Source: an uncultured Solibacteraceae bacterium (lineage in GTDB: Bacteria; Acidobacteriota; Terriglobia; 20CM-2-55-15). From it: a stretch of 64,000 nt of DNA. Under the pieces are notes generated by a model. The model saw only the letters and a list, made by a program, of their open reading frames with translations, searched no databases and had not been told where the DNA came from. Both the position numbers and the translations under genes were made by a program. Where the stretch lies: assembly GCA_964584785.1 (NCBI GenBank), contig CAZPBY010000001.1, positions 74,718 through 138,717 on the forward strand, given 5' to 3'. The first letter of the stretch is position 1. Each line of letters opens with the position of its first letter. This document shows, one piece after another, positions 5,681-28,638 of the stretch.

Positions 5681-6517
5681 TCAAGCCGGCTGACCGTGCT
5701 GTGCCTTGCCACCAGGGGCTGGAGACCAGTCGGTCGGCGCCATCTCCGACATGTCGGGCTCCAGTTGTAGAACATCGGCGATCTTCGTATAGCTTGAGAA
5801 CATCTGGGTCATACCGAGCACTTCCATCACGCCATGGTCACCGACACCCAGCTTGCGCATTTGATCGAGGTGAAACGGCGCGCCAAACGTGGAGTGTGTC
5901 GTCACGGAAACAGCAAAGGCGAGTGCTTCCTTCAGCCGGCGCGTCAGACGATTGTCCGAGAACGCATGCCGGGTCGCGGCCCAGAAATCGGCGACATAGC
6001 CACTGTCATGAGCCATCACTCGGAATACGGCGGGCACATGATCGATTTGATAGAAAGTTCGGATGTCGGCGAAGACGGCGGACAGCTTGGGATTCGCATC
6101 TTCGTTGGCGACCGGTTCGATCAGCATCGCGCAACCTGGAATAGCCACGGCATCGGCAAGCACATTGATGGCGTTGGTGATCCCGGTCACAAACGCGGCC
6201 TCGTACCAGTACGAATCTTCCGGCAAACCTTGCAGCTTCCCGGCTGCAACATGCGACGTCACTCAATAGTCGCAGGCATTCACGCCACTCACCACCGCCG
6301 CTATCATTTCTTTTTCAGCGCGTGTGAACTCACCCGGATCGGCCGCACGCTTCATCGCACGGCGGTGCGGACCACCAAAGGCGGAATCCCATCCCATCAC
6401 GCGCGACATCGCGGGAGCTTGTTTAAAATCGTATTTGAACCACTCCTTAATGGATTCAAACAGCTTTTGAGTTTCCTCCGGATATTCGGAAGCATCGCGA
6501 ATTCGAACGGTCGGCAT
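5681..6517 (-). CDS. AhpD-like / carboxymuconolactone-decarboxylase family protein with in-frame UGA (candidate selenocysteine, residue 85)
   Basis: ATG at 6517..6515 with GGAGG 6 nt upstream. The reading frame is continuous through TGA at 6265..6263 into the 193-aa downstream ORF. The TGA replaces the second Cys of the family redox motif N-x-C-x-Y-C-x-x-x-H (here NACDY-U-VTSH). A second, degenerate CMD-like half follows. Confidence 0.6.
6230..6249 (-). promoter_or_regulatory. candidate bacterial SECIS hairpin downstream of the in-frame UGA
   Basis: mRNA 5'-UUGCAGC CGGGAA GCUGCAA-3': a perfect 7-bp stem with a G-rich 6-nt loop. The stem starts 13 nt after the UGA. Confidence 0.45.
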
Positions 6518-7111
6518 GGCAACCTCCAGGTGAGTGAAGGATTCTACCGCCAACCTCGCAATTTCGTAGAATGATTGGACGTTGCAGGCGCAAACCCGCG
6601 GGGCAGGACGCGGGGTCAGGCGGCTACTTGAGCTAAGGCCGCTCTGATGCGAAACGCTTGACTGGAAATCTGGGACGGAGGAAAGTTTTGAAACGTTGAG
6701 TATCGTTTGGCGCTCAAAATTTTTCCTCCGTCCACATTCCTCCTGTTTAGATGACCACGTCGGGAAGGCGCCACCCTGATCCACCGTTAAATGGGTTGCC
6801 GCTCCGGTAACGCTGTCCAGCGCCCAGATCGGCGATCCGACGGAGGGTTGGAGAATGTTGACGGCGATTTGCCGCTGGTTTGGAGAGAGCCTCAGATTCT
6901 GTGTCCGCTTCCCTTCCCGGGCGACCTGTTGCAATCAAGGCGCGCGTATTTTAGCAAATCGCGCGGCAAGTCCTTTCACCCCAGAGGACACAGAGGACCT
7001 CTATCCGGAAATTTCCACAGGCGGATGATGCATAATTTTGGTTTTTACGCTGGAACGGATACCCGTCAGGTAACGAAAATGCCGGACGGCGGCGTGGAGC
7101 TTGGTGAACGG

Positions 7112-23408: not shown

Positions 23409-24575
23409 CTAGGATTCGATCAGCCTGAAGAGTTCGTCGACCGCCAGTACTTTCATATTCCCAGCGGACACGGTTGTGGAGGGTGCGCCTCGCACGGCCC
23501 GGTGAACGATGAACCCATCGACCTGATAGCCCTTGCCGGCCTCGCGGAGCCGCCGATATGGACCTGCCATGGCAGGCGTCACGGTTCGGGTTGCTTTCGC
23601 TTCGATGGCCATCAGTCTCCGCCGGGAACCGGGAACAACAAAATCGATCTCGAGTCCCTGTTGATCGCGAAAAAAGTACAGCGTTCTGGCCTTTCCAAGC
23701 GAAAGCTGCAGCTTCACGATCTCAGACGCAACGAAGCCTTCAAAGACAGGGCCGAGAAACGGCGATCCGTTGAGCATCGATTGAGATTCGATTCCGAGAA
23801 GGTGGCACGCCAGGCCCGAATCCGCAAAATACAACTTTGGCGATTTGATGAGTCGCTTCCCAAAGTTCTCGTAAAACGGAGGAATCAGGAAAATTTGTGA
23901 TGTCACTTCAAGGATCCCGAGCCATTCCGAAATCGTCGGAACAGAAACTCCGAGCGGGGCTGCGAGTTCCGTCCGATTGAGAATTTGCCCGCATCTCGTG
24001 GCGAGCAGCGACAGGAACCGCCGAAATGTCGCGAGGTCGCGAATGGAGCTAATGGCGCGGACATCCCGTTCCAGGTAGGTCTGCACGTATGAACGAAACC
24101 AGATGTCGGATGTTGATGGCCGCGCCAAAACCTCCGGAAACCCACCGCGAAGAAGCGATACCTTTGGTGATTCCTTCAATGAGAGCGGCATCAACTGAAA
24201 CACCGCGGCACGTCCGGCCATGGACTCGCTAACGCCGCGCATTAACGGAGCATCCTGCGAACCGGTAAGCAGCCACTGTCCTTTCTTTTCCGGATGGCGG
24301 TCAATACGCGTCCGGATGTAATTGAGAACCTCCGGCACGTTTTGAATTTCGTCGAAAATCGCCGGAACGGAAGTCTCTTCAACAAACGTTCGCGGATCGT
24401 AGCTGAGGCGCGCGACAACATCCGGATCCTCGAGGAGGTAATACGCCGCGTTGGGAAACATCCGGCGTAGCAGAGTGGTCTTTCCGGAGCGGCGCGGGCC
24501 CGTCAAGATCACCGCCGAAAAAGATTTGACGGCACGCGCCAGGGGATTGCTCAAGAGCCGCGGGATGAATTTCAT
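23409..24575 (-). CDS. AAA+ ATPase with DUF4143-type C-terminus (paralogue of 4381..5574)
   Basis: Walker A GPRRSGKTT. Same architecture as the first copy. Confidence 0.8.
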   Translation of the reverse strand: MKFIPRLLSNPLARAVKSFSAVILTGPRRSGKTTLLRRMFPNAAYYLLEDPDVVARLSYDPRTFVEETSVPAIFDEIQNVPEVLNYIRTRIDRHPEKKGQWLLTGSQDAPLMRGVSESMAGRAAVFQLMPLSLKESPKVSLLRGGFPEVLARPSTSDIWFRSYVQTYLERDVRAISSIRDLATFRRFLSLLATRCGQILNRTELAAPLGVSVPTISEWLGILEVTSQIFLIPPFYENFGKRLIKSPKLYFADSGLACHLLGIESQSMLNGSPFLGPVFEGFVASEIVKLQLSLGKARTLYFFRDQQGLEIDFVVPGSRRRLMAIEAKATRTVTPAMAGPYRRLREAGKGYQVDGFIVHRAVRGAPSTTVSAGNMKVLAVDELFRLIES

Positions 24576-25066
24576 TTGAGAATCCTAAGGTAGAATCTTA
24601 AAAAACTCAAAGCAGGTATGGTGTCCGCATGCGCAGCCGCTGGCCTGTCCGGGGCGGGTGCCTCCCCAGGAGGTAATTCACCTTGTAAGAGGTCGTTATT
24701 TTGCCGGGGCGCTTCAGCGTCCAGGTGTTTCTGCACTCACCCAGTGGCCAGGCGAAGCAGCTGTTCAGCGCGCCTCTCGCAACCACGGCCAACAAGCCAC
24801 AAGGCGCTGCAGACCGTCGAGCGGCGTGTGGGCCGGCTAGTCGTCAGTTGGACCGGCATATTGCGTCTCGACGGCTAAGCCTTGGAAATGATCAGGATGC
24901 CTGCGGGGCCAGACCCGGACCATAGTACCATTCGCGAGGACATGGCTCGGTTTTACGATCTCTTTCACCAAGGATTGGTACAGCGGATCAGGAAGATCCG
25001 CCGGACAAGGAAGTCACGCGAGGCAGGATACTCAGGAACATCAAAAACAAGGACTCTTAAGAGTTG

Positions 25067-25112
25067 ACGGAGCGAATCAGCCAAGATGGCGGGTTCGCTC
25101 CGTTTTCATTTT
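25067..25112 (+). terminator. rho-independent terminator
   Basis: ACGGAGCGAA (25067..25076), a 17-nt loop, then TTCGCTCCGT (25094..25103), followed by TTTCATTTT. It sits directly after the TGA of a 61-codon ORF (24882..25067). Confidence 0.5.
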
Positions 25113-25130
25113 AAGCTGCATCGTGATAAC

Positions 25131-25420
25131 TCTTTCATCCACCACAGTCGTTCTCCGAGGCCATTTTATTTGCGGCCGCGAAGATCGTTTGCGGCGCGAA
25201 GAAGATCATTTCGGAAGCGGAAAAGGTTTTGTCCGTTCCGCTAAATACCTTTTCCATCACCGTCAAAGTCTTGTCCGACAGAGAGAACGCCTTTTCCGCC
25301 GATCAAATCATCGTTGCCGCGTCGGCAAAGGCTTTTTGTAGTTCCGCGAATACCTTGTCCGGCACGAACAAAATCATTTCCATCGATGAAAAGATCTTTT
25401 CCGGCGCTGAAATGATGGCC
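25131..25420. repeat. array of ~14 degenerate, head-to-tail ~21-bp direct repeats (noncoding)
   Basis: Units of 19-22 nt with consensus tTCCGnnnnGnaAAAnnnCtt. Examples: gtccgttccgctaaatacctt, ttccatcaccgtcaaagtctt, gtccgacagagagaacgcctt, ttccgccgatcaaatcatcgt. Each unit alternates a GC-rich dyad (e.g. GCCGCGTCGGC, TTCCGCGAA) with an A3-N3-T3 block. The period is about two helical turns. Confidence 0.6.
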
Positions 25421-25592
25421 TCAGCCGGCCACCCTTACAACCAATAGATTGTGTGTTACTTACGCCGTAACCAAACGATCGTTTCAGCGGCTCAAATGAT
25501 CTTTTCAGTGACGGAAAGATCATGTCCGTCTCCCACCAACCTTTTCCCGTGGCGAAGCGAACCGTGGGAGACGGCCAGATCGTCTTGTTCAC

Positions 25593-25817
25593 CTAAAAGA
25601 TGAAGCGCGCCTGCAGTTGGAACATTCGCGGCGGATCGATGTTGGCGAACACCGGGATCGCATTTGTTGCGGCGCCGGCAGCGACGAACTGTCCGAACGT
25701 CGGGTTAACCGTTCCGCTGTCACTGTACACGGTTTGTCCGCGTCTCCTTGCCCATCCGGTGAACCGGGGCCACTCCTCAAAGACATGTCGTACGAACGCC
25801 ACAGGGAACAGCCACAC
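25593..25817 (-). pseudogene. C-terminal remnant of a TonB-dependent-receptor-like outer-membrane protein gene
   Basis: The 74-aa ORF ends ...NIDPPRMFQLQARFIF. This resembles the C-terminal beta-barrel signature of the intact gene at 56613..59630 (...SRQIQLALRFDF). No upstream body is present. It is followed by hairpins GTCTCCCAC/GTGGGAGAC and TGATCTTT/AAAGATCA. Confidence 0.35.
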
Positions 25818-25952
25818 GCGAAAACGTCAATGCTGTGTTGAACATTGGTCCTCCTTGTAATGATGTCTGTATGCCGTGGCGGGTCAGAAATATTCCCTCG
25901 ACTCTGAGGGGCCCTAACACGTGGTAAAGTCTCCCTGCTGTTTGGAGAGACC

Positions 25953-27152
25953 ATGAGCTACATCAGTGGGGCGGCGGCGGACGAAAGAGACTTTCCGACC
26001 CTTCTCGCCATCGAGGCTCAGTTCGGCTTTATCCCGAACTTCTTCCGAGCCCAAACGATTCGGCCCGACCTGATCGATGCGGAAGTCGGTCTTGTCGGAG
26101 CGGTGATGCTGCAAGAACGCGCGCTGAGCCGGAAACAGAAGGAGTACATCTTTCTGGCGTGCTCGGCCGACAACCTCAGCACCTATTGCGTCACGGCGCA
26201 CTGTGAGATCGTTCGCATGCTCGGCATCGAAGGGCCCGAGCCGGAGCAGATCGCGCTCGACCATACTGTGGCCGATATTGCCGACGCCGATAAAGCTCTC
26301 CTGGACTTTGCGGTGAAATTAAACAACCACCCCACGAACCTGAGTCGTTCGGACATCGACTCGCTGCGCGGGCACGGCTTTGGCGATGGTCATATCCTCG
26401 AGACGGTCCTCATGGTCGGCCTGGCTAAGTTCGCGAACTTTGTGGCGTTCGGCCTGGGGACGGCGCCGGATTTCGATTCGACGAAAGTGGCCAGTGTTCT
26501 TGGATTGGGAGAGGTTTCCGAAGGACGCGAAAAAGATTTGAATCCTCCGGCCCGAAATTTCACTCTAATAAAGGATGATGATGCGGGTTTAGTCGAACGC
26601 ACTCGACGCGGCGAGCTGGAAGCCTTCGACGAACTCGTGCGGCGCCATCAACAAAGGATCTACCGGACGTTGATGGCAATCACCCGCAAGCCGGACGAAG
26701 CGGAAGATGGGGTCCAGAACGTGTTTATCAAAGCGTTCGAGCATATCGCCGGATTTCAGGGGGCGTCGAAATTCGTGACGTGGCTGACTCGCATCGCAAT
26801 CAATGAAGGGGCGGAACACCTGCGCATGCGTAAGAACCTGGACAGTCTGGACGATCCAGCCGCCGGCGATGACGCCGCCTTTCGGCCACGCAACGTCTCG
26901 CCCTGGGGAAACCCCGAGCAGCTCTATTCCCAGTCAGAACTGCGGCGCACCGTGGAACAAGAACTCCTGAAGCTGCCGGCGAAATACCGCGTACCCGTCA
27001 TACTGCGCGATCTTCAGGAATTTACCGCCGAAGAAACTGCCGAAGTTCTAGGCATCGCCGTGCCGGCGCTGAAATCCCGTTTGTTGCGCGGGCGGATGAT
27101 GTTGCGAGAGGCCCTGGCTCCCAGCATGGGAAGGAGAGCGGCGAATGTTTAA
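25953..27152 (+). CDS. fusion protein: N-terminal AhpD-like/CMD (peroxidase-related) domain + C-terminal ECF sigma-70 family factor
   Basis: Residues 1-~200: CMD family (FGFIPNFFRAQ..., redox motif reduced to S-x-x-x-Y-C-V-T-A-H). Residues ~205-399: sigma region 2 (FDELVRRHQQRIYRTLMAIT...FVTWLTRIAINEGAEHLRMRK) and region 4 (LPAKYRVPVILRDLQEFTAEETAEVLGIAVPALKSRLLRGR). It is a single uninterrupted ORF. Confidence 0.75.
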   Translation: MSYISGAAADERDFPTLLAIEAQFGFIPNFFRAQTIRPDLIDAEVGLVGAVMLQERALSRKQKEYIFLACSADNLSTYCVTAHCEIVRMLGIEGPEPEQIALDHTVADIADADKALLDFAVKLNNHPTNLSRSDIDSLRGHGFGDGHILETVLMVGLAKFANFVAFGLGTAPDFDSTKVASVLGLGEVSEGREKDLNPPARNFTLIKDDDAGLVERTRRGELEAFDELVRRHQQRIYRTLMAITRKPDEAEDGVQNVFIKAFEHIAGFQGASKFVTWLTRIAINEGAEHLRMRKNLDSLDDPAAGDDAAFRPRNVSPWGNPEQLYSQSELRRTVEQELLKLPAKYRVPVILRDLQEFTAEETAEVLGIAVPALKSRLLRGRMMLREALAPSMGRRAANV

Positions 27153-27381
27153 GTGTGAAGAAGTCCTGGCCGAACTGTCGAATTATCTCGACGACCAGGC
27201 AAGCCGGAACATTCGCCAAAAGGTGGAAGAGCATATGCTGCACTGCAACTCGTGCCGGGCGGTATATGACTCGACCCGCAAAACGCTCCGCATCGTGACG
27301 GAAACCGGTTCGTTCGAGTTGTCCGAAAGCGTCTCTACCCGAATCGCGAACAACATCCGAGCCAGGATTCGCGCCAAATAA
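27145..27381 (+). CDS. small soluble zinc-finger (ZAS-type, RsrA-like) anti-sigma factor
   Basis: 78 aa. C4...H30-x3-C34-x2-C37 (MFKCEE...EEHMLHCNSCRAV). It overlaps the sigma gene stop by 8 nt and has an AGGAG SD. Confidence 0.7.
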   Translation: MFKCEEVLAELSNYLDDQASRNIRQKVEEHMLHCNSCRAVYDSTRKTLRIVTETGSFELSESVSTRIANNIRARIRAK

Positions 27382-27714
27382 TGTCTCAGCTTGCATCCTG
27401 GCAGCGGCTGAGAAAGATTTTTTGAATCCTACCGCCCGGCTGATTCATCTAACTTCCCAGAGCAGCACAAAAGCGTATGCGATCCGCCGGAAACCAAGAC
27501 TTCGAAGCCTTACTGTTGCCGCACTTGAACGCTTGTTTCAAACGGCGTTGCGGCCCACGGATCATCGAATCGCGGAGGAGACAGCCGTTCACGAGGTTTA
27601 CAGCCGGGCGTTGAGGACATCGAGTTCGCACGAGTGACAAGTTTCTCTTTCGGGAATAAGACCGCGCCCCGATGTTTTTTGTCGGCAGGACGCGAATTGC
27701 CTGAGGATCTATAA

Positions 27715-28275
27715 GTGCTTTTTGCAAGGAAAGTCGAGTCTGGAGAATTTGAGGCTGTAGCCCTTCCACACCTGAATGATCTGTACCGGACGGCCGTGCA
27801 CCTTGTACGGGACCGGACCGAGGCTCAGGACCTGGTGCAAGAAGCGTATATGCAGGCCTGGAAGGCGTTTCATCGATTCCAGCCGGGGACTAATTGCAGG
27901 GCGTGGCTCTTCAAGATTCTCATCAATGAAGTCCGGCACTATCGCCGCCGTTGGTTCAATAAGAAGACCGTTCCGGAAGGGGAGCAATCGTTCGAAGAGA
28001 CATTGGCCTTCGAGCCGCCGATTCCGGAAGACATCACAGACGAAGACATCCTGGCCGCGCTGGCCGATGTTCCGAAAGATTTTCGTGAGGTCGTTCTGCT
28101 GGCCGACGTCCAGGAGTTTTCGTACAACGAGATTGCGGAGATGCTGGGCATCCCCGTCGGAACAGTGATGTCTCGATTGAGCCGAGGAAGAAAGCGCCTG
28201 CGCGAAAAACTGTCCGGCTATGCGAGTTCGAGCGGGATTGGCAGGACGCTACGGGAGGGCGCCTTGACGGGCTGA
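27715..28275 (+). CDS. ECF (sigma-24) RNA polymerase sigma factor with no adjacent anti-sigma
   Basis: GTG start with a GAGGA SD. Region 2 (DLVQEAYMQAWKAFHRFQ...AWLFKILINEVRH) and region 4 (VVLLADVQEFSYNEIAEMLGIPVGTVMSRLSRGRKRL). Confidence 0.8.
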   Translation: MLFARKVESGEFEAVALPHLNDLYRTAVHLVRDRTEAQDLVQEAYMQAWKAFHRFQPGTNCRAWLFKILINEVRHYRRRWFNKKTVPEGEQSFEETLAFEPPIPEDITDEDILAALADVPKDFREVVLLADVQEFSYNEIAEMLGIPVGTVMSRLSRGRKRLREKLSGYASSSGIGRTLREGALTG

Positions 28276-28638
28276 GCGCATTGTTAGCCAGCGTTCTTGT
28301 TCAGGGACTTCCTCCAGTTTGCAAGTCTCGTCCAACGTCGTCTGACCGGTATCCGTCCAGATTACCTTTCTGAGTCGACGAGCCATTTCTTCCGGAGAGC
28401 TTCGGCGACTTGTTCATGGGACATCGTACGCCCTGCTCGGGAATCGGCCTGGCCCTGCTCAATTGTCTGGATTACGTGAAGATGATACAGAACGTCGTCC
28501 AAGCTACAGTCGCCATTCGGCTAGTGCGAGAATACTCAGCGCCGGCTGTTTGAAAGAACCCGGAACGCGTGTCGGAAGTCACGGATACCTTGCACTTCGA
28601 CACGTGGTTGCGCTAACGTGTCGAAGGGCGAGGTATCG

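Follow-up and report, generated by a model that had tools for sequence, protein, structure and literature searches.

An AhpD-like domain joined to an ECF sigma factor beside a minimal zinc anti-sigma factor in Acidobacteriota: a candidate thiol/peroxide input

Described ECF systems and the locus in the window

Paired extracytoplasmic function (ECF) sigma and anti-sigma factors constitute the third major mode by which bacteria signal. For cytoplasmic anti-sigma factors that have no sensor, the way in which the signal arrives is often unknown. We analysed a stretch of 64,000 nucleotides (nt) from an uncultured Solibacteraceae bacterium of the Acidobacteriota (contig CAZPBY010000001.1; the whole stretch is called the window below), in which a domain of the carboxymuconolactone decarboxylase (CMD)/AhpD-like type stands in front of an ECF sigma factor in one protein, and the next gene encodes a minimal zinc-associated anti-sigma (ZAS) protein. 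The reading that we tentatively prefer, at slightly less than an even chance, is that the minimal ZAS protein holds the sigma factor and that the tethered CMD domain would supply a thiol/peroxide input. The family represents a testable route to a new ECF input mechanism.

Several described systems share parts of this arrangement. In SigR-RsrA of Streptomyces coelicolor (ECF12), as in the window, a soluble anti-sigma factor made of the ZAS domain only is encoded directly after the ECF sigma factor, the zinc site is spaced Cys-x25-His-x3-Cys-x2-Cys, and a housekeeping-type and an ECF-type promoter (both putative in the window) occur together, so that two transcripts or isoforms are possible. The gene sigR has a constitutive promoter p1 and a SigR-dependent promoter p2, the latter giving a longer, unstable isoform (PMC7826278). 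Unlike in sigR, the ECF-type promoter of the window would lie inside the gene, downstream of the housekeeping one, and the N-terminal extension is a folded enzyme-like domain of ~170 amino acids (aa), whereas that of SigR is a 55-aa peptide. The window ZAS also stays under the cutoff of the RsrA hidden Markov model (HMM) with none of the four RsrA redox determinants, and the window sigma factor is AlgU/SigW/RpoE-like. SigW of Bacillus subtilis (5WUQ_A) is among the three closest solved sigma factors, behind AlgU, and its anti-sigma factor RsiW has a C3/H30/C34/C37 zinc site spaced as in the window ZAS, with an Arg after the CxxC in both. However, RsiW is a membrane protein under regulated proteolysis and is insensitive to thiol oxidants despite its Cys-His-Cys-Cys spacing (PMC3177212), whereas the window ZAS has no membrane or extracytoplasmic part.

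The sigma factors of ECF41 (PMC3426412) are, like the window one, genomically linked to a gene of the carboxymuconolactone-decarboxylase/AhpD family ('COE'). They have a large C-terminal regulatory extension and no anti-sigma factor, neither of which holds for the window protein. The CMD proteins of ECF41 are separate, keep the CxxC motif and have no signalling role, whereas the window CMD domain is fused N-terminally and has lost CxxC, and the ECF41 promoter TGTCACA-N16-CGTC differs from the TG(A/C/T)ATCC-N16-CGTC of the window family (TCTAA in the window clade). In RpoE-ChrR of Rhodobacter sphaeroides (ECF11), a cytoplasmic ZAS-type anti-sigma factor responds to reactive oxygen species via an extra sensor domain and not via the ZAS zinc site (PMC8999054); the cupin sensor of ChrR is on the anti-sigma factor, whereas here the extra domain is on the sigma factor and the anti-sigma factor is bare. 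BldN (ECF121) and SigC (ECF36s4) carry an extension before sigma2, that of ECF121 coexisting with an anti-sigma factor as a second layer (PMC7826278), but neither the short pro-sequences nor the transmembrane/DUF2275 segments of which these extensions consist form a complete soluble enzyme fold with stand-alone homologues. N-terminal extensions of ECF sigma factors are rarer and generally shorter than C-terminal ones, and none is named with a CMD domain (Casas-Pastor 2021, PMC7826278), in agreement with a first-pass annotation of the window sequence that had called the N-terminal enzyme-like extension unusual. No published CMD/AhpD-ECF fusion was found in the searchable literature, where a bare listing in the supplementary tables of ECF classifications is still possible. 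As parts, the ECF sigma factor, the class I ZAS anti-sigma factor, the AhpD-like fold and ECF-type promoters are known. Apparently undescribed are a complete N-terminal AhpD-like domain on an ECF sigma factor alongside a minimal ZAS and a free paralogous partner, a fusion arising at least twice, and a promoter embedded in linker codons.

The sigma/anti-sigma locus comprises the following features, all on the + strand:

25944..25947, +, Shine-Dalgarno GGAG of the fusion gene, read from the sequence; the GGAG/GGGG block is aligned across the clade
25953..27152, +, CMD-ECF fusion gene (399 aa), one unbroken open reading frame (ORF) with an ATG start
25995..26468, +, AhpD-like/TIGR01926 CMD domain of the stand-alone-partner type, aa 15-172 (TIGR01926, PDB matches, Foldseek, tree)
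26178..26207, +, putative active-site helix S76-T-Y-C79-V-T-A-H83-C84-E85, with SxxC-x3-HC instead of CxxC-x3-H
26469..26582, +, linker, aa 173-210, predicted to be disordered (low confidence in the structural model); the protein is poorly conserved outside the DNA motif described below
26634..26834, +, sigma region 2, aa 228-294 (Pfam Sigma70_r2, 52.9 bits)
26949..27104, +, sigma region 4, aa 333-384 (Pfam Sigma70_r4_2, 44.4 bits)
27131..27136, +, Shine-Dalgarno AAGGAG (strong), 8 nt ahead of the start codon of the ZAS gene, read from the sequence
27145..27381, +, minimal cytoplasmic ZAS gene (78 aa; zf-HC2), candidate ligands C4, H30, C34 and C37, 8-nt overlap with the fusion gene

The first-pass annotation had read the 399-aa ORF as a complete CMD domain joined to complete sigma regions 2 and 4, and the HMM searches of each half agreed, with Sigma70_r2/r4_2 matched, TIGR01926 and, for the ZAS, zf-HC2 above their cutoffs and the Pfam CMD model below. 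TIGR01926 ('peroxidase-related enzyme') scored 99.0 bits (cutoff 81.8), residues 15-172 aligning to model positions 17-175 of 178, and TIGR02937 (sigma70-ECF) scored 87.2 bits (cutoff 42.9; both NCBIfam). With regions 2 and 4 present and no regions 1.1 or 3, the protein has the make-up of an ECF (group 4) sigma factor; region 4 ends 15 residues before the C-terminus. None of the NCBIfam sigma equivalogs reached its cutoff on the fusion protein, the top one being PRK11922 (161.9 against 204). Pfam CMD (PF02627) reached 17.8 bits on the N-terminal half, below its gathering threshold of 23, so that Pfam-based annotation misses the CMD domain in the 400-aa forms. In public databases a family member is called 'RNA polymerase sigma-70 factor (ECF subfamily)' or 'peroxidase-related enzyme', and no member has the two names together.

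Among solved structures, the N-terminal half matched the AhpD-like 2PRR (E=6.8e-21), 2OYO, 3C1L, 2PFX and 6K40 (range E=7e-21 to 4e-17), and the sigma domain was nearest to AlgU (8Z6G, 6IN7), followed by SigW (5WUQ_A) and RpoE (1OR7) (E=1e-27 to 1e-21, 100-80 bits); SigH (46 bits) and SigR (region 4 only, 30 bits) were weaker matches. An AlphaFold2 model of the fusion protein, built on 31 orthologues, contained three folded helical modules (CMD, sigma2 and sigma4), with a mean predicted local distance difference test (pLDDT) of 65.5 and a predicted TM-score (pTM) of 0.39. The linkers 166-207 and 294-322 were of low confidence (pLDDT below 50 at residues 166-180 and 182-207), the one between sigma2 and sigma4 being short and disordered. 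Foldseek retrieved 2PRR, 6K40 and 3C1L with the N-terminal half (target TM 0.68-0.71, at a moderate CMD-domain pLDDT of 60-92) and AlgU, sigmaE and SigW with the C-terminal half. In this model the CMD domain has the all-helical AhpD-like fold, and it is predicted to be joined to the sigma factor by a flexible tether, a disordered linker of ~40 aa.

Such a domain could also act by sequestration. AhpD-like proteins oligomerise, and an oligomer of the fusion protein would keep several sigma domains in an assembly barred from RNA polymerase, or the module would fold back on sigma2/sigma4 as an intramolecular anti-sigma factor would. The block would be lifted when a ligand binds or the domain is oxidised, with the ZAS protein as a second brake. 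Regulatory extensions replacing or supplementing anti-sigma factors are well known in ECF sigma factors (PMC8999054; N-terminal in ECF36/SigC, PMC7826278), 2PRR, 3C1L and 6K40 were deposited with 12 chains per entry (a hint of oligomers, not a proof), and the tandem CMD modules of the 600-aa forms described below could mimic a dimer. We nevertheless regard sequestration as quite improbable, because the model gave no confident packing of the CMD domain on the sigma factor (pTM 0.39, disordered linker) and because virtually all loci keep a dedicated anti-sigma factor, so that there is less need for a second inhibitor.

The first-pass annotation had also noted that the CxxC of the CMD domain is reduced to a single Cys (STYCVTAH), as was seen again in the alignment against 2PRR and 2OYO. 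In M. tuberculosis AhpD the catalytic motif is C130-x-x-C133-x3-H137. The solved 2PRR and 2OYO carry C-x-Y-C-x-x-x-H where the window protein reads N-L-S76-T-Y-C79-V-T-A-H83-C84-E: CxxC has become SxxC, and an extra Cys stands right after the His. The AhpD-type catalytic CxxC-x3-H is missing from the window clade and from all 75 stand-alone partner proteins, the first Cys being Ser. The site S-T-Y-C-V-T-A-H-C-E is invariant in these 75 stand-alone CMD proteins and also in the window clade, and C70, C79, H83, C84 and E85 are invariant in a 31-sequence alignment of the short class of the family, which is collinear. In the older fused modules of other lineages C79 is often replaced by F or G, H83 by Q or Y, and C84 by S, G or A. 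DR1765 (6K40), 2PRR, 2OYO and 3C1L share with the window domain the TIGR01926 model, the fold (TM ~0.7) and the second Cys with a His four residues on. Unlike these proteins, the window domain has Ser for the first Cys and a new invariant Cys after the His, is fused to a transcription factor, and always occurs with a sigma/ZAS pair. A DR1765 deletion mutant is sensitive to H2O2, the CxxC cysteines matter for complementation, and AhpD-type proteins are thiol-disulfide oxidoreductases (PMC8945050). The family would offer a function for the uncharacterised SxxC-x3-HC branch of AhpD-like proteins.

For the second gene, the ORF coordinates and the zf-HC2 (PF13490) score of 32.8 bits (cutoff 22.2) agreed with the annotated ZAS-only protein with its 8-nt overlap and C4/H30/C34/C37. 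The H-x3-C-x2-C motif in an anti-sigma domain beside an ECF sigma gene assigns the predicted protein to the ZAS class. The four candidate ligands were invariant in the 62 small ZAS orthologues, and their spacing equals C11/H37/C41/C44 of RsrA, C4 standing 26 residues before H30 as C11 does before H37. The first pass had seen in this an RsrA-type thiol switch; the spacing stood, but the other marks of that system were missing. The RsrA equivalog TIGR03988 was the best NCBIfam match, although with 36.3 against a cutoff of 62.5. In RsrA, redox sensitivity is conferred by E39, E40, L45 and E46 (Jung et al. 2011, PMC3177212). None of the four is found in the window ZAS (L32, H33, R38 and A39), and across the 62 orthologues E32 occurred once, E33 in 29 proteins, and L38 and E39 in none, with at most one of the four in each protein. 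The partner sigma factor is not of the SigR/SigH (ECF12) type, AlgU, SigW and RpoE being nearest. The only solved ZAS relative was RsiW (5WUQ_C, E=0.32), with equal ligand spacing.

On these grounds, and as it consists of the anti-sigma domain only, the ZAS looks passive, not self-sensing. An RsrA-like, self-sensing ZAS (a disulfide of the C4-C37 type, with zinc loss), to which the CMD domain would add an independent peroxide-sensing or resetting (reductase) layer, is in our view rather unlikely. It would account for the invariant RsrA spacing and for RsrA being the top model, it agrees with the thiol-disulfide oxidoreductase activity of AhpD-type proteins (PMC8945050), and a soluble ZAS with no other domain leaves no membrane-proteolysis control; but the score below the cutoff, the missing determinants, the same ligand spacing in the redox-insensitive RsiW and a sigma factor that is AlgU/SigW/RpoE-like and not SigR-like all speak against it. 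A single CMD sensor on a passive ZAS fits at least as well as the two-layer sensing that had been suggested. A soluble ZAS of only 78 aa cannot take its input from membrane proteolysis, so that some cytoplasmic input is required. As the bare ZAS has neither a sensor domain nor the RsrA determinants, we infer that the input device is the CMD domain.

Distribution and origin of the fusion

A search over 5.8 billion proteins (E≤1e-10) returned 1,261 relatives, and all of the best 120, from which the architecture was read, had sigma domains behind a CMD-like N-terminus. The family is large (more than 1,000 clusters at 90% identity) and abundant in soil Acidobacteriota, a dominant and poorly studied phylum; over 1,000 relatives, most of them acidobacterial, have one or two CMD modules ahead of the same sigma factor. 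The window clade comprised 30 other proteins of 395-425 aa, 63-78% identical end to end (NCBI, JGI, ENA and Logan assemblies), and a second length class contained many proteins of ~590-690 aa, 45-55% identical, with two tandem CMD modules. These orthologues leave only a vanishingly small chance that a sequencing or assembly error hides a stop or a frameshift between two genes, the danger that the first-pass annotation had foreseen. Separate CMD and sigma genes in the same order do occur in two loci (L003 and L074), but the 30 independent full-length orthologues from four data sources align unbroken, the linker is in the same frame in L002, L081, L083 and L085, and a protein recorded from a 245-kb NCBI contig is identical.

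A genome survey with one genome per GTDB species gave 80 related loci (L numbers), whose ORFs were annotated with the three modules of the window. They were nearly all from Acidobacteriota (Terriglobia, Pyrinomonadaceae/Blastocatellia, Bryobacterales, Vicinamibacterales, Thermoanaerobaculia and Polarisedimenticolia), single loci being labelled Chthonomonadales, Binatia and Verrucomicrobiia. The fused CMD-sigma gene was present in 66 loci and was almost always followed by a small ZAS gene with an overlap of 4-8 nt; the fusion and ZAS with an 8-nt overlap recurred in L002 and, beyond the 80, in L081-L085. Nearly every locus also encoded a stand-alone CMD protein of ~188 aa. Its gene lies directly after the ZAS gene in some loci, often with a 4-nt overlap (L005, L024, L029, L036 and L064), is convergent and downstream of the ZAS gene in Pyrinomonadaceae, and divergent and upstream in Terriglobales. 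By its gene content, the survey shows the window locus to be the sigma/anti-sigma core of a conserved three-part acidobacterial module made of an RpoE/SigW/AlgU-like ECF sigma factor, a soluble ZAS of ~80 aa in translational coupling with it, and an AhpD-like (TIGR01926) protein with an invariant SxxC-x3-H-C site.

Most lineages possess a sigma factor with one or two older, often degenerate N-terminal CMD modules and a separate intact CMD neighbour. The fused CMD domain of the window was 55-69% identical to the stand-alone CMD proteins (median 60.6%), compared to 26-48% for the fused modules of other lineages. A neighbour-joining tree placed it, together with L001 and L002, within the clade of stand-alone proteins (78 leaves, stem length 0.105). 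The sigma domains of the window clade sat within the radiation of the fused family, near the unfused-sigma loci L003 and L074, in which a stand-alone-type CMD gene lies directly upstream of the sigma and ZAS genes. No further CMD copy of this type was found in the window or within 6 kb in five clade loci. Judging from identity and tree placement, the window domain descends from the stand-alone protein, and its fusion is therefore a second, independent and younger event in a family where the joining of CMD to sigma is ancient and widespread. Asked in the first pass whether the fusion is conserved or local, the comparison answers both, with old fusions across the family and a separate, younger one in the window lineage. 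It also shows that in this lineage the intact partner CMD protein itself was joined to the sigma factor and that there is no longer a separate copy in the neighbourhood.

Having been fused at least twice, the physical association of CMD and sigma looks selected. The older modules were kept despite the frequent loss of C79, H83 or C84, which argues for a non-catalytic, regulatory association. The family is of interest in that the extra domain is on the sigma factor rather than on the anti-sigma factor, in that it was acquired repeatedly, and in that a free copy with an intact active site is usually next door.

L003 (a metagenome-assembled genome, MAG, of Polarisedimenticolia) and L074 (a Verrucomicrobiia MAG) were the only two loci with the unfused order CMD, sigma, ZAS, sigma, ZAS. 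Their proteins are nearly identical though the phyla differ, which indicates a binning error or a recent transfer. In Terriglobales (L026, L035, L038-L040, L043-L047, L070 and L079) the ZAS domain is the N-terminus of a protein of ~735-916 aa, whose gene overlaps the end of the gene for a sigma factor with two CMD modules; the anti-sigma partners of this one sigma family thus come in a minimal and in a very large form. Short top matches of 191-286 aa were considered as unfused members of the window clade and rejected as truncated or contig-end fragments, two of them beside genes resembling those of insertion sequences (IS-like). In two soil metagenome contigs (L086, 4001-4861, and L088, 4001-4702; proteins P0123 and P0124) the clade fusion gene is cut short. 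One break lies inside sigma2, next to 23S_rRNA_IVP and HTH_28 (IS-like) genes, and the other precisely where the sigma domain begins, the genes downstream being unrelated; ORFs for the CMD domain plus linker remain, without sigma or ZAS.

Promoter-like elements and the proposed mechanism

Three promoter-like elements were located around and inside the fusion gene; scores are those of a position weight matrix (PWM) trained on intergenic instances only, with which the whole window was scanned on both strands:

25922..25930, +, extended -10 element TGGTAAAGT (TGnTAnnnT), ~22 nt before the start codon, aligned in five clade members
26531..26569, +, internal ECF-type promoter-like element AAAAGATTTGAATCCT-N13-TCACTCTAAT, inside the ORF in the CMD-sigma linker; second-best PWM match, 16.2
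27415..27453, +, downstream ECF-type promoter-like element AGATTTTTTGAATCCT-N13-TTCATCTAAC, between the ZAS stop codon and the next sigma gene; best PWM match, 22.7

The internal element, its second copy downstream of the ZAS gene and the stand-alone CMD partner go beyond the first-pass annotation. The element of the family is bipartite and of the ECF type, with a -35 box TG(A/C/T)ATCC preceded by an A/T-rich flank, a spacer of ~16 nt and a -10 box CGTC(T/C)(A/T)A. The third-best and lower matches in the window all scored 13 or less. The internal motif was found at the orthologous position in ~50 of the 80 loci, always on the coding strand and, in all cases but one, 8-38 nt before the sigma domain; it was present in all members of the window clade. 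Among the 80 loci the motif stands before neighbouring ECF2-like sigma genes and before large ZAS genes as well. The downstream element had orthologous counterparts after the ZAS gene in L001, L002, L081, L083 and L085, and the internal and downstream copies of the clade follow the consensus TTTGAATCCT-N13-nnn(C/T)TCTAA(T/C).

The conservation of the internal copies follows the DNA rather than the protein. The two boxes contained 1.39 and 1.19 bits per position, whereas the spacer had 0.35 and the flanks had ~0.5. Wobble positions (G in TTG/GTG, T in AAT/TAT/CAT and in CGT) reached ~1.8 bits, the first codon positions ~0.6, and rare A/T-ending codons are thus fixed at the motif in GC-rich genomes. 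The encoded peptides vary by lineage (KEVNP, KDLYP, KDLNP, NSLNP). A protein motif 'LNP/VNL' was considered and rejected in favour of a DNA-level element, since the residues vary while the wobble bases stay fixed. With its conserved wobble bases inside a coding linker, the motif neatly illustrates how coding and regulatory constraints overlap, and if validated the pair would be a useful orthogonal sigma/promoter part. Right after the internal element (26575..26592, +) the sequence ATG ATG ATG CGG GTT TAG encodes MMMRV-stop out of frame, with AAAGGA before it; this frame, which does not occur in the other clade members, may be a chance feature of D-D-D codons.

The extended -10 TGnTAnnnT was aligned in all five clade members compared (window TGGTAAAGT, L081 TGCTAATAT, L083 TGATAGCAT, L085 TGGTACGAT, L002 TGTTACCAT). 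Upstream of the start codon these members share only this element and GGAG, the rest being unconserved. The shared element is likely the primary, housekeeping-type promoter of the operon, and it suggests that the long form is constitutively expressed. A consensus scan for TTGACA/TATAAT promoters and for terminators gave nothing above chance. With the AAGGAG before its start codon, the ZAS can be translated independently of the sigma factor, and an internal transcript would at least express the ZAS. The stand-alone CMD genes of Pyrinomonadaceae (L006-L022, L057 and L060) have a strongly conserved sigma70-like promoter CTTGACGC-N17-TAGCATTGCG 70-90 nt upstream, so that the free CMD enzyme looks constitutive there and not sigma-dependent.

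The position of the internal element also bears on the possibility that the CMD domain is a passenger, i.e., an effector enzyme of the small regulon of the sigma factor, fused by the loss of a stop codon without regulatory effect, control being exerted via the ZAS only. The internal promoter would then let sigma and/or ZAS be made without the enzyme part. A promoter-like element kept exactly at the junction is what would be expected of a swallowed intergenic region, and in the unfused L003 and L074 the motif stands at the putative start of the sigma gene. The CMD genes of ECF41 adjoin ECF genes and are their sole detectable targets, with no signalling role (PMC3426412). The stand-alone CMD gene is co-operonic with sigma and ZAS in many loci, and truncated derivatives with the CMD part alone occur. 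We nonetheless hold the passenger explanation to be unlikely, though it is the main rival: the fusion took place at least twice and was maintained across several Acidobacteriota classes, many old fused modules were retained after losing their Cys/His site, no conserved sigma-only start follows the internal motif, which means that most of the sigma factor must carry the CMD domain, and, unlike in ECF41, an anti-sigma factor is present and the CMD has no CxxC.

We return to the input reading, in which the CMD domain signals to the ZAS-held sigma factor. In this model, the long CMD-sigma protein and the ZAS would be made constitutively from the housekeeping-type extended -10 promoter, and the Zn-bound ZAS would clamp regions 2 and 4 of the sigma factor, as is seen in the solved complexes of class I anti-sigma factors. 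Peroxide or disulfide stress would oxidise C79, and the oxidation would reach a ZAS cysteine through a mixed disulfide; alternatively, the oxidation of C79 would change the conformation or the oligomeric state of the CMD domain. By either route zinc would be lost and the sigma factor released. As C79 has no resolving Cys in the CxxC position, another thiol would have to resolve it once oxidised, and the ZAS cysteines held close by the tether are obvious candidates. The free sigma factor would then use the putative TGAATCC-N16-(C)TCTAA promoters. The internal one, just before the sigma-coding part, would raise the expression of the ZAS and possibly of a sigma-only product, and the one downstream of the ZAS gene would drive the next sigma gene.

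Several points weigh against this reading. The CMD-to-ZAS relay step is a pure inference, and no ZAS-CMD fusion that could serve as Rosetta-stone evidence was present among the 120 best CMD matches. The canonical AhpD CxxC is absent, so peroxidase or reductase activity of the CMD domain is not to be assumed, and the ligand may be something other than peroxide, since decarboxylases and a debrominase (Bmp8, 6OHJ) are among the proteins with the CMD fold. The AlphaFold2 model gave no confident contact between CMD and sigma. The RsrA determinants were defined in actinomycetes only, which leaves room for a self-sensing ZAS. With regard to the promoters, the internal -10 box of the window lacks the CGTC core (it reads ACTCTAAT). 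Shuffled windows are expected to give 0.38 PWM matches of at least 16 and 0.13 of at least 20 per window; the scores alone are mildly unusual, and the two matches are convincing only because of their orthologous positions. Finally, no in-frame ATG, GTG or TTG with a ribosome-binding site is universally conserved after the internal motif, and a sigma-only isoform is therefore not demonstrated.

A bolder combination, which taken as a whole we consider rather improbable, is that a monothiol AhpD-like sensor on the sigma factor relays to a non-self-sensing ZAS from a nested gene with a linker promoter, while the older modules dock the free CMD protein. The constitutive promoter would yield the sensor-sigma protein, the linker promoter a second transcript, for the ZAS alone or for the ZAS plus a sigma-only product, and the identical downstream promoter would feed a sigma cascade; the degenerate CMD modules of the sister lineages would serve to dock the free CMD enzyme onto the same complex. 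In the yeast Orp1/Gpx3-Yap1 relay, a peroxidase-like cysteine is oxidised first and then transfers the oxidation to a poorly reactive regulator. The logic proposed here is alike, although that system is eukaryotic and unrelated in sequence and the window relay is hypothetical. If true, the combination would represent a counterpart in bacteria, with covalent tethering, of the relays from a peroxidase to a transcription factor.

Neighbouring genes in the window

Two further sigma-related features follow the ZAS gene:

27477..27637, +, frameshifted and truncated remnant of a short 'ECF2' sigma-like gene (tblastn with the L085 and L002 ECF2 proteins)
27715..28275, +, second intact ECF sigma gene, 186 aa, without an adjacent anti-sigma gene (Sigma70_r2 and r4_2)

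In the remnant, ~50 N-terminal residues were matched in two frames (E~1e-6 against a 339-nt region), the rest being deleted. The intact ECF2 proteins of the relatives L081, L083 and L085 have 142-153 aa and are encoded after the ZAS. The sigma factor at 27715 is SigH-actino-like (TIGR02947, 152.7 bits, below the cutoff) and 80% identical to a sigma factor of L081 (9280-9834), which is there followed by a 298-aa ZAS-like gene and a MIP channel gene. At 27715..28275 and 28276..28617 of the window these two genes are missing, and a PadR/ADOP-permease pair comes next. The 27715 gene was considered as the conserved ECF2 neighbour and rejected, since it is a different sigma factor and the real ECF2 is the remnant. 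With ECF2 decayed and the 27715 sigma factor orphaned, the promoter-like element at 27415 now points at the orphan sigma gene, the first intact gene downstream.

On the other side of the locus, the segment of ~1 kb (24576..25590) between an AAA-ATPase-like gene (23409..24575, -) and a fragment of an HXXEE-domain gene contained only short Arg-rich frames and no convincing ORF. The fragment itself (25704..25826, -, within the ORF 25593..25817) is 46% identical to residues 17-59 of a 167-aa HXXEE protein encoded upstream of the L085 fusion gene, and is probably a truncated pseudogene.

The second AhpD-like gene reported in the first pass ~20 kb upstream of the fusion gene does exist (5681..6934, -). 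It is no close relative of the fused CMD domain, the two giving no tblastn match at 1e-3. It consists of ORFs of 223 and 193 aa parted only by an in-frame TGA at 6263..6265, which lies in A-C-D-Y-[TGA]-V-T-S-H, a CxxU version of the AhpD CxxC-x3-H, and makes the gene a candidate selenoprotein gene.

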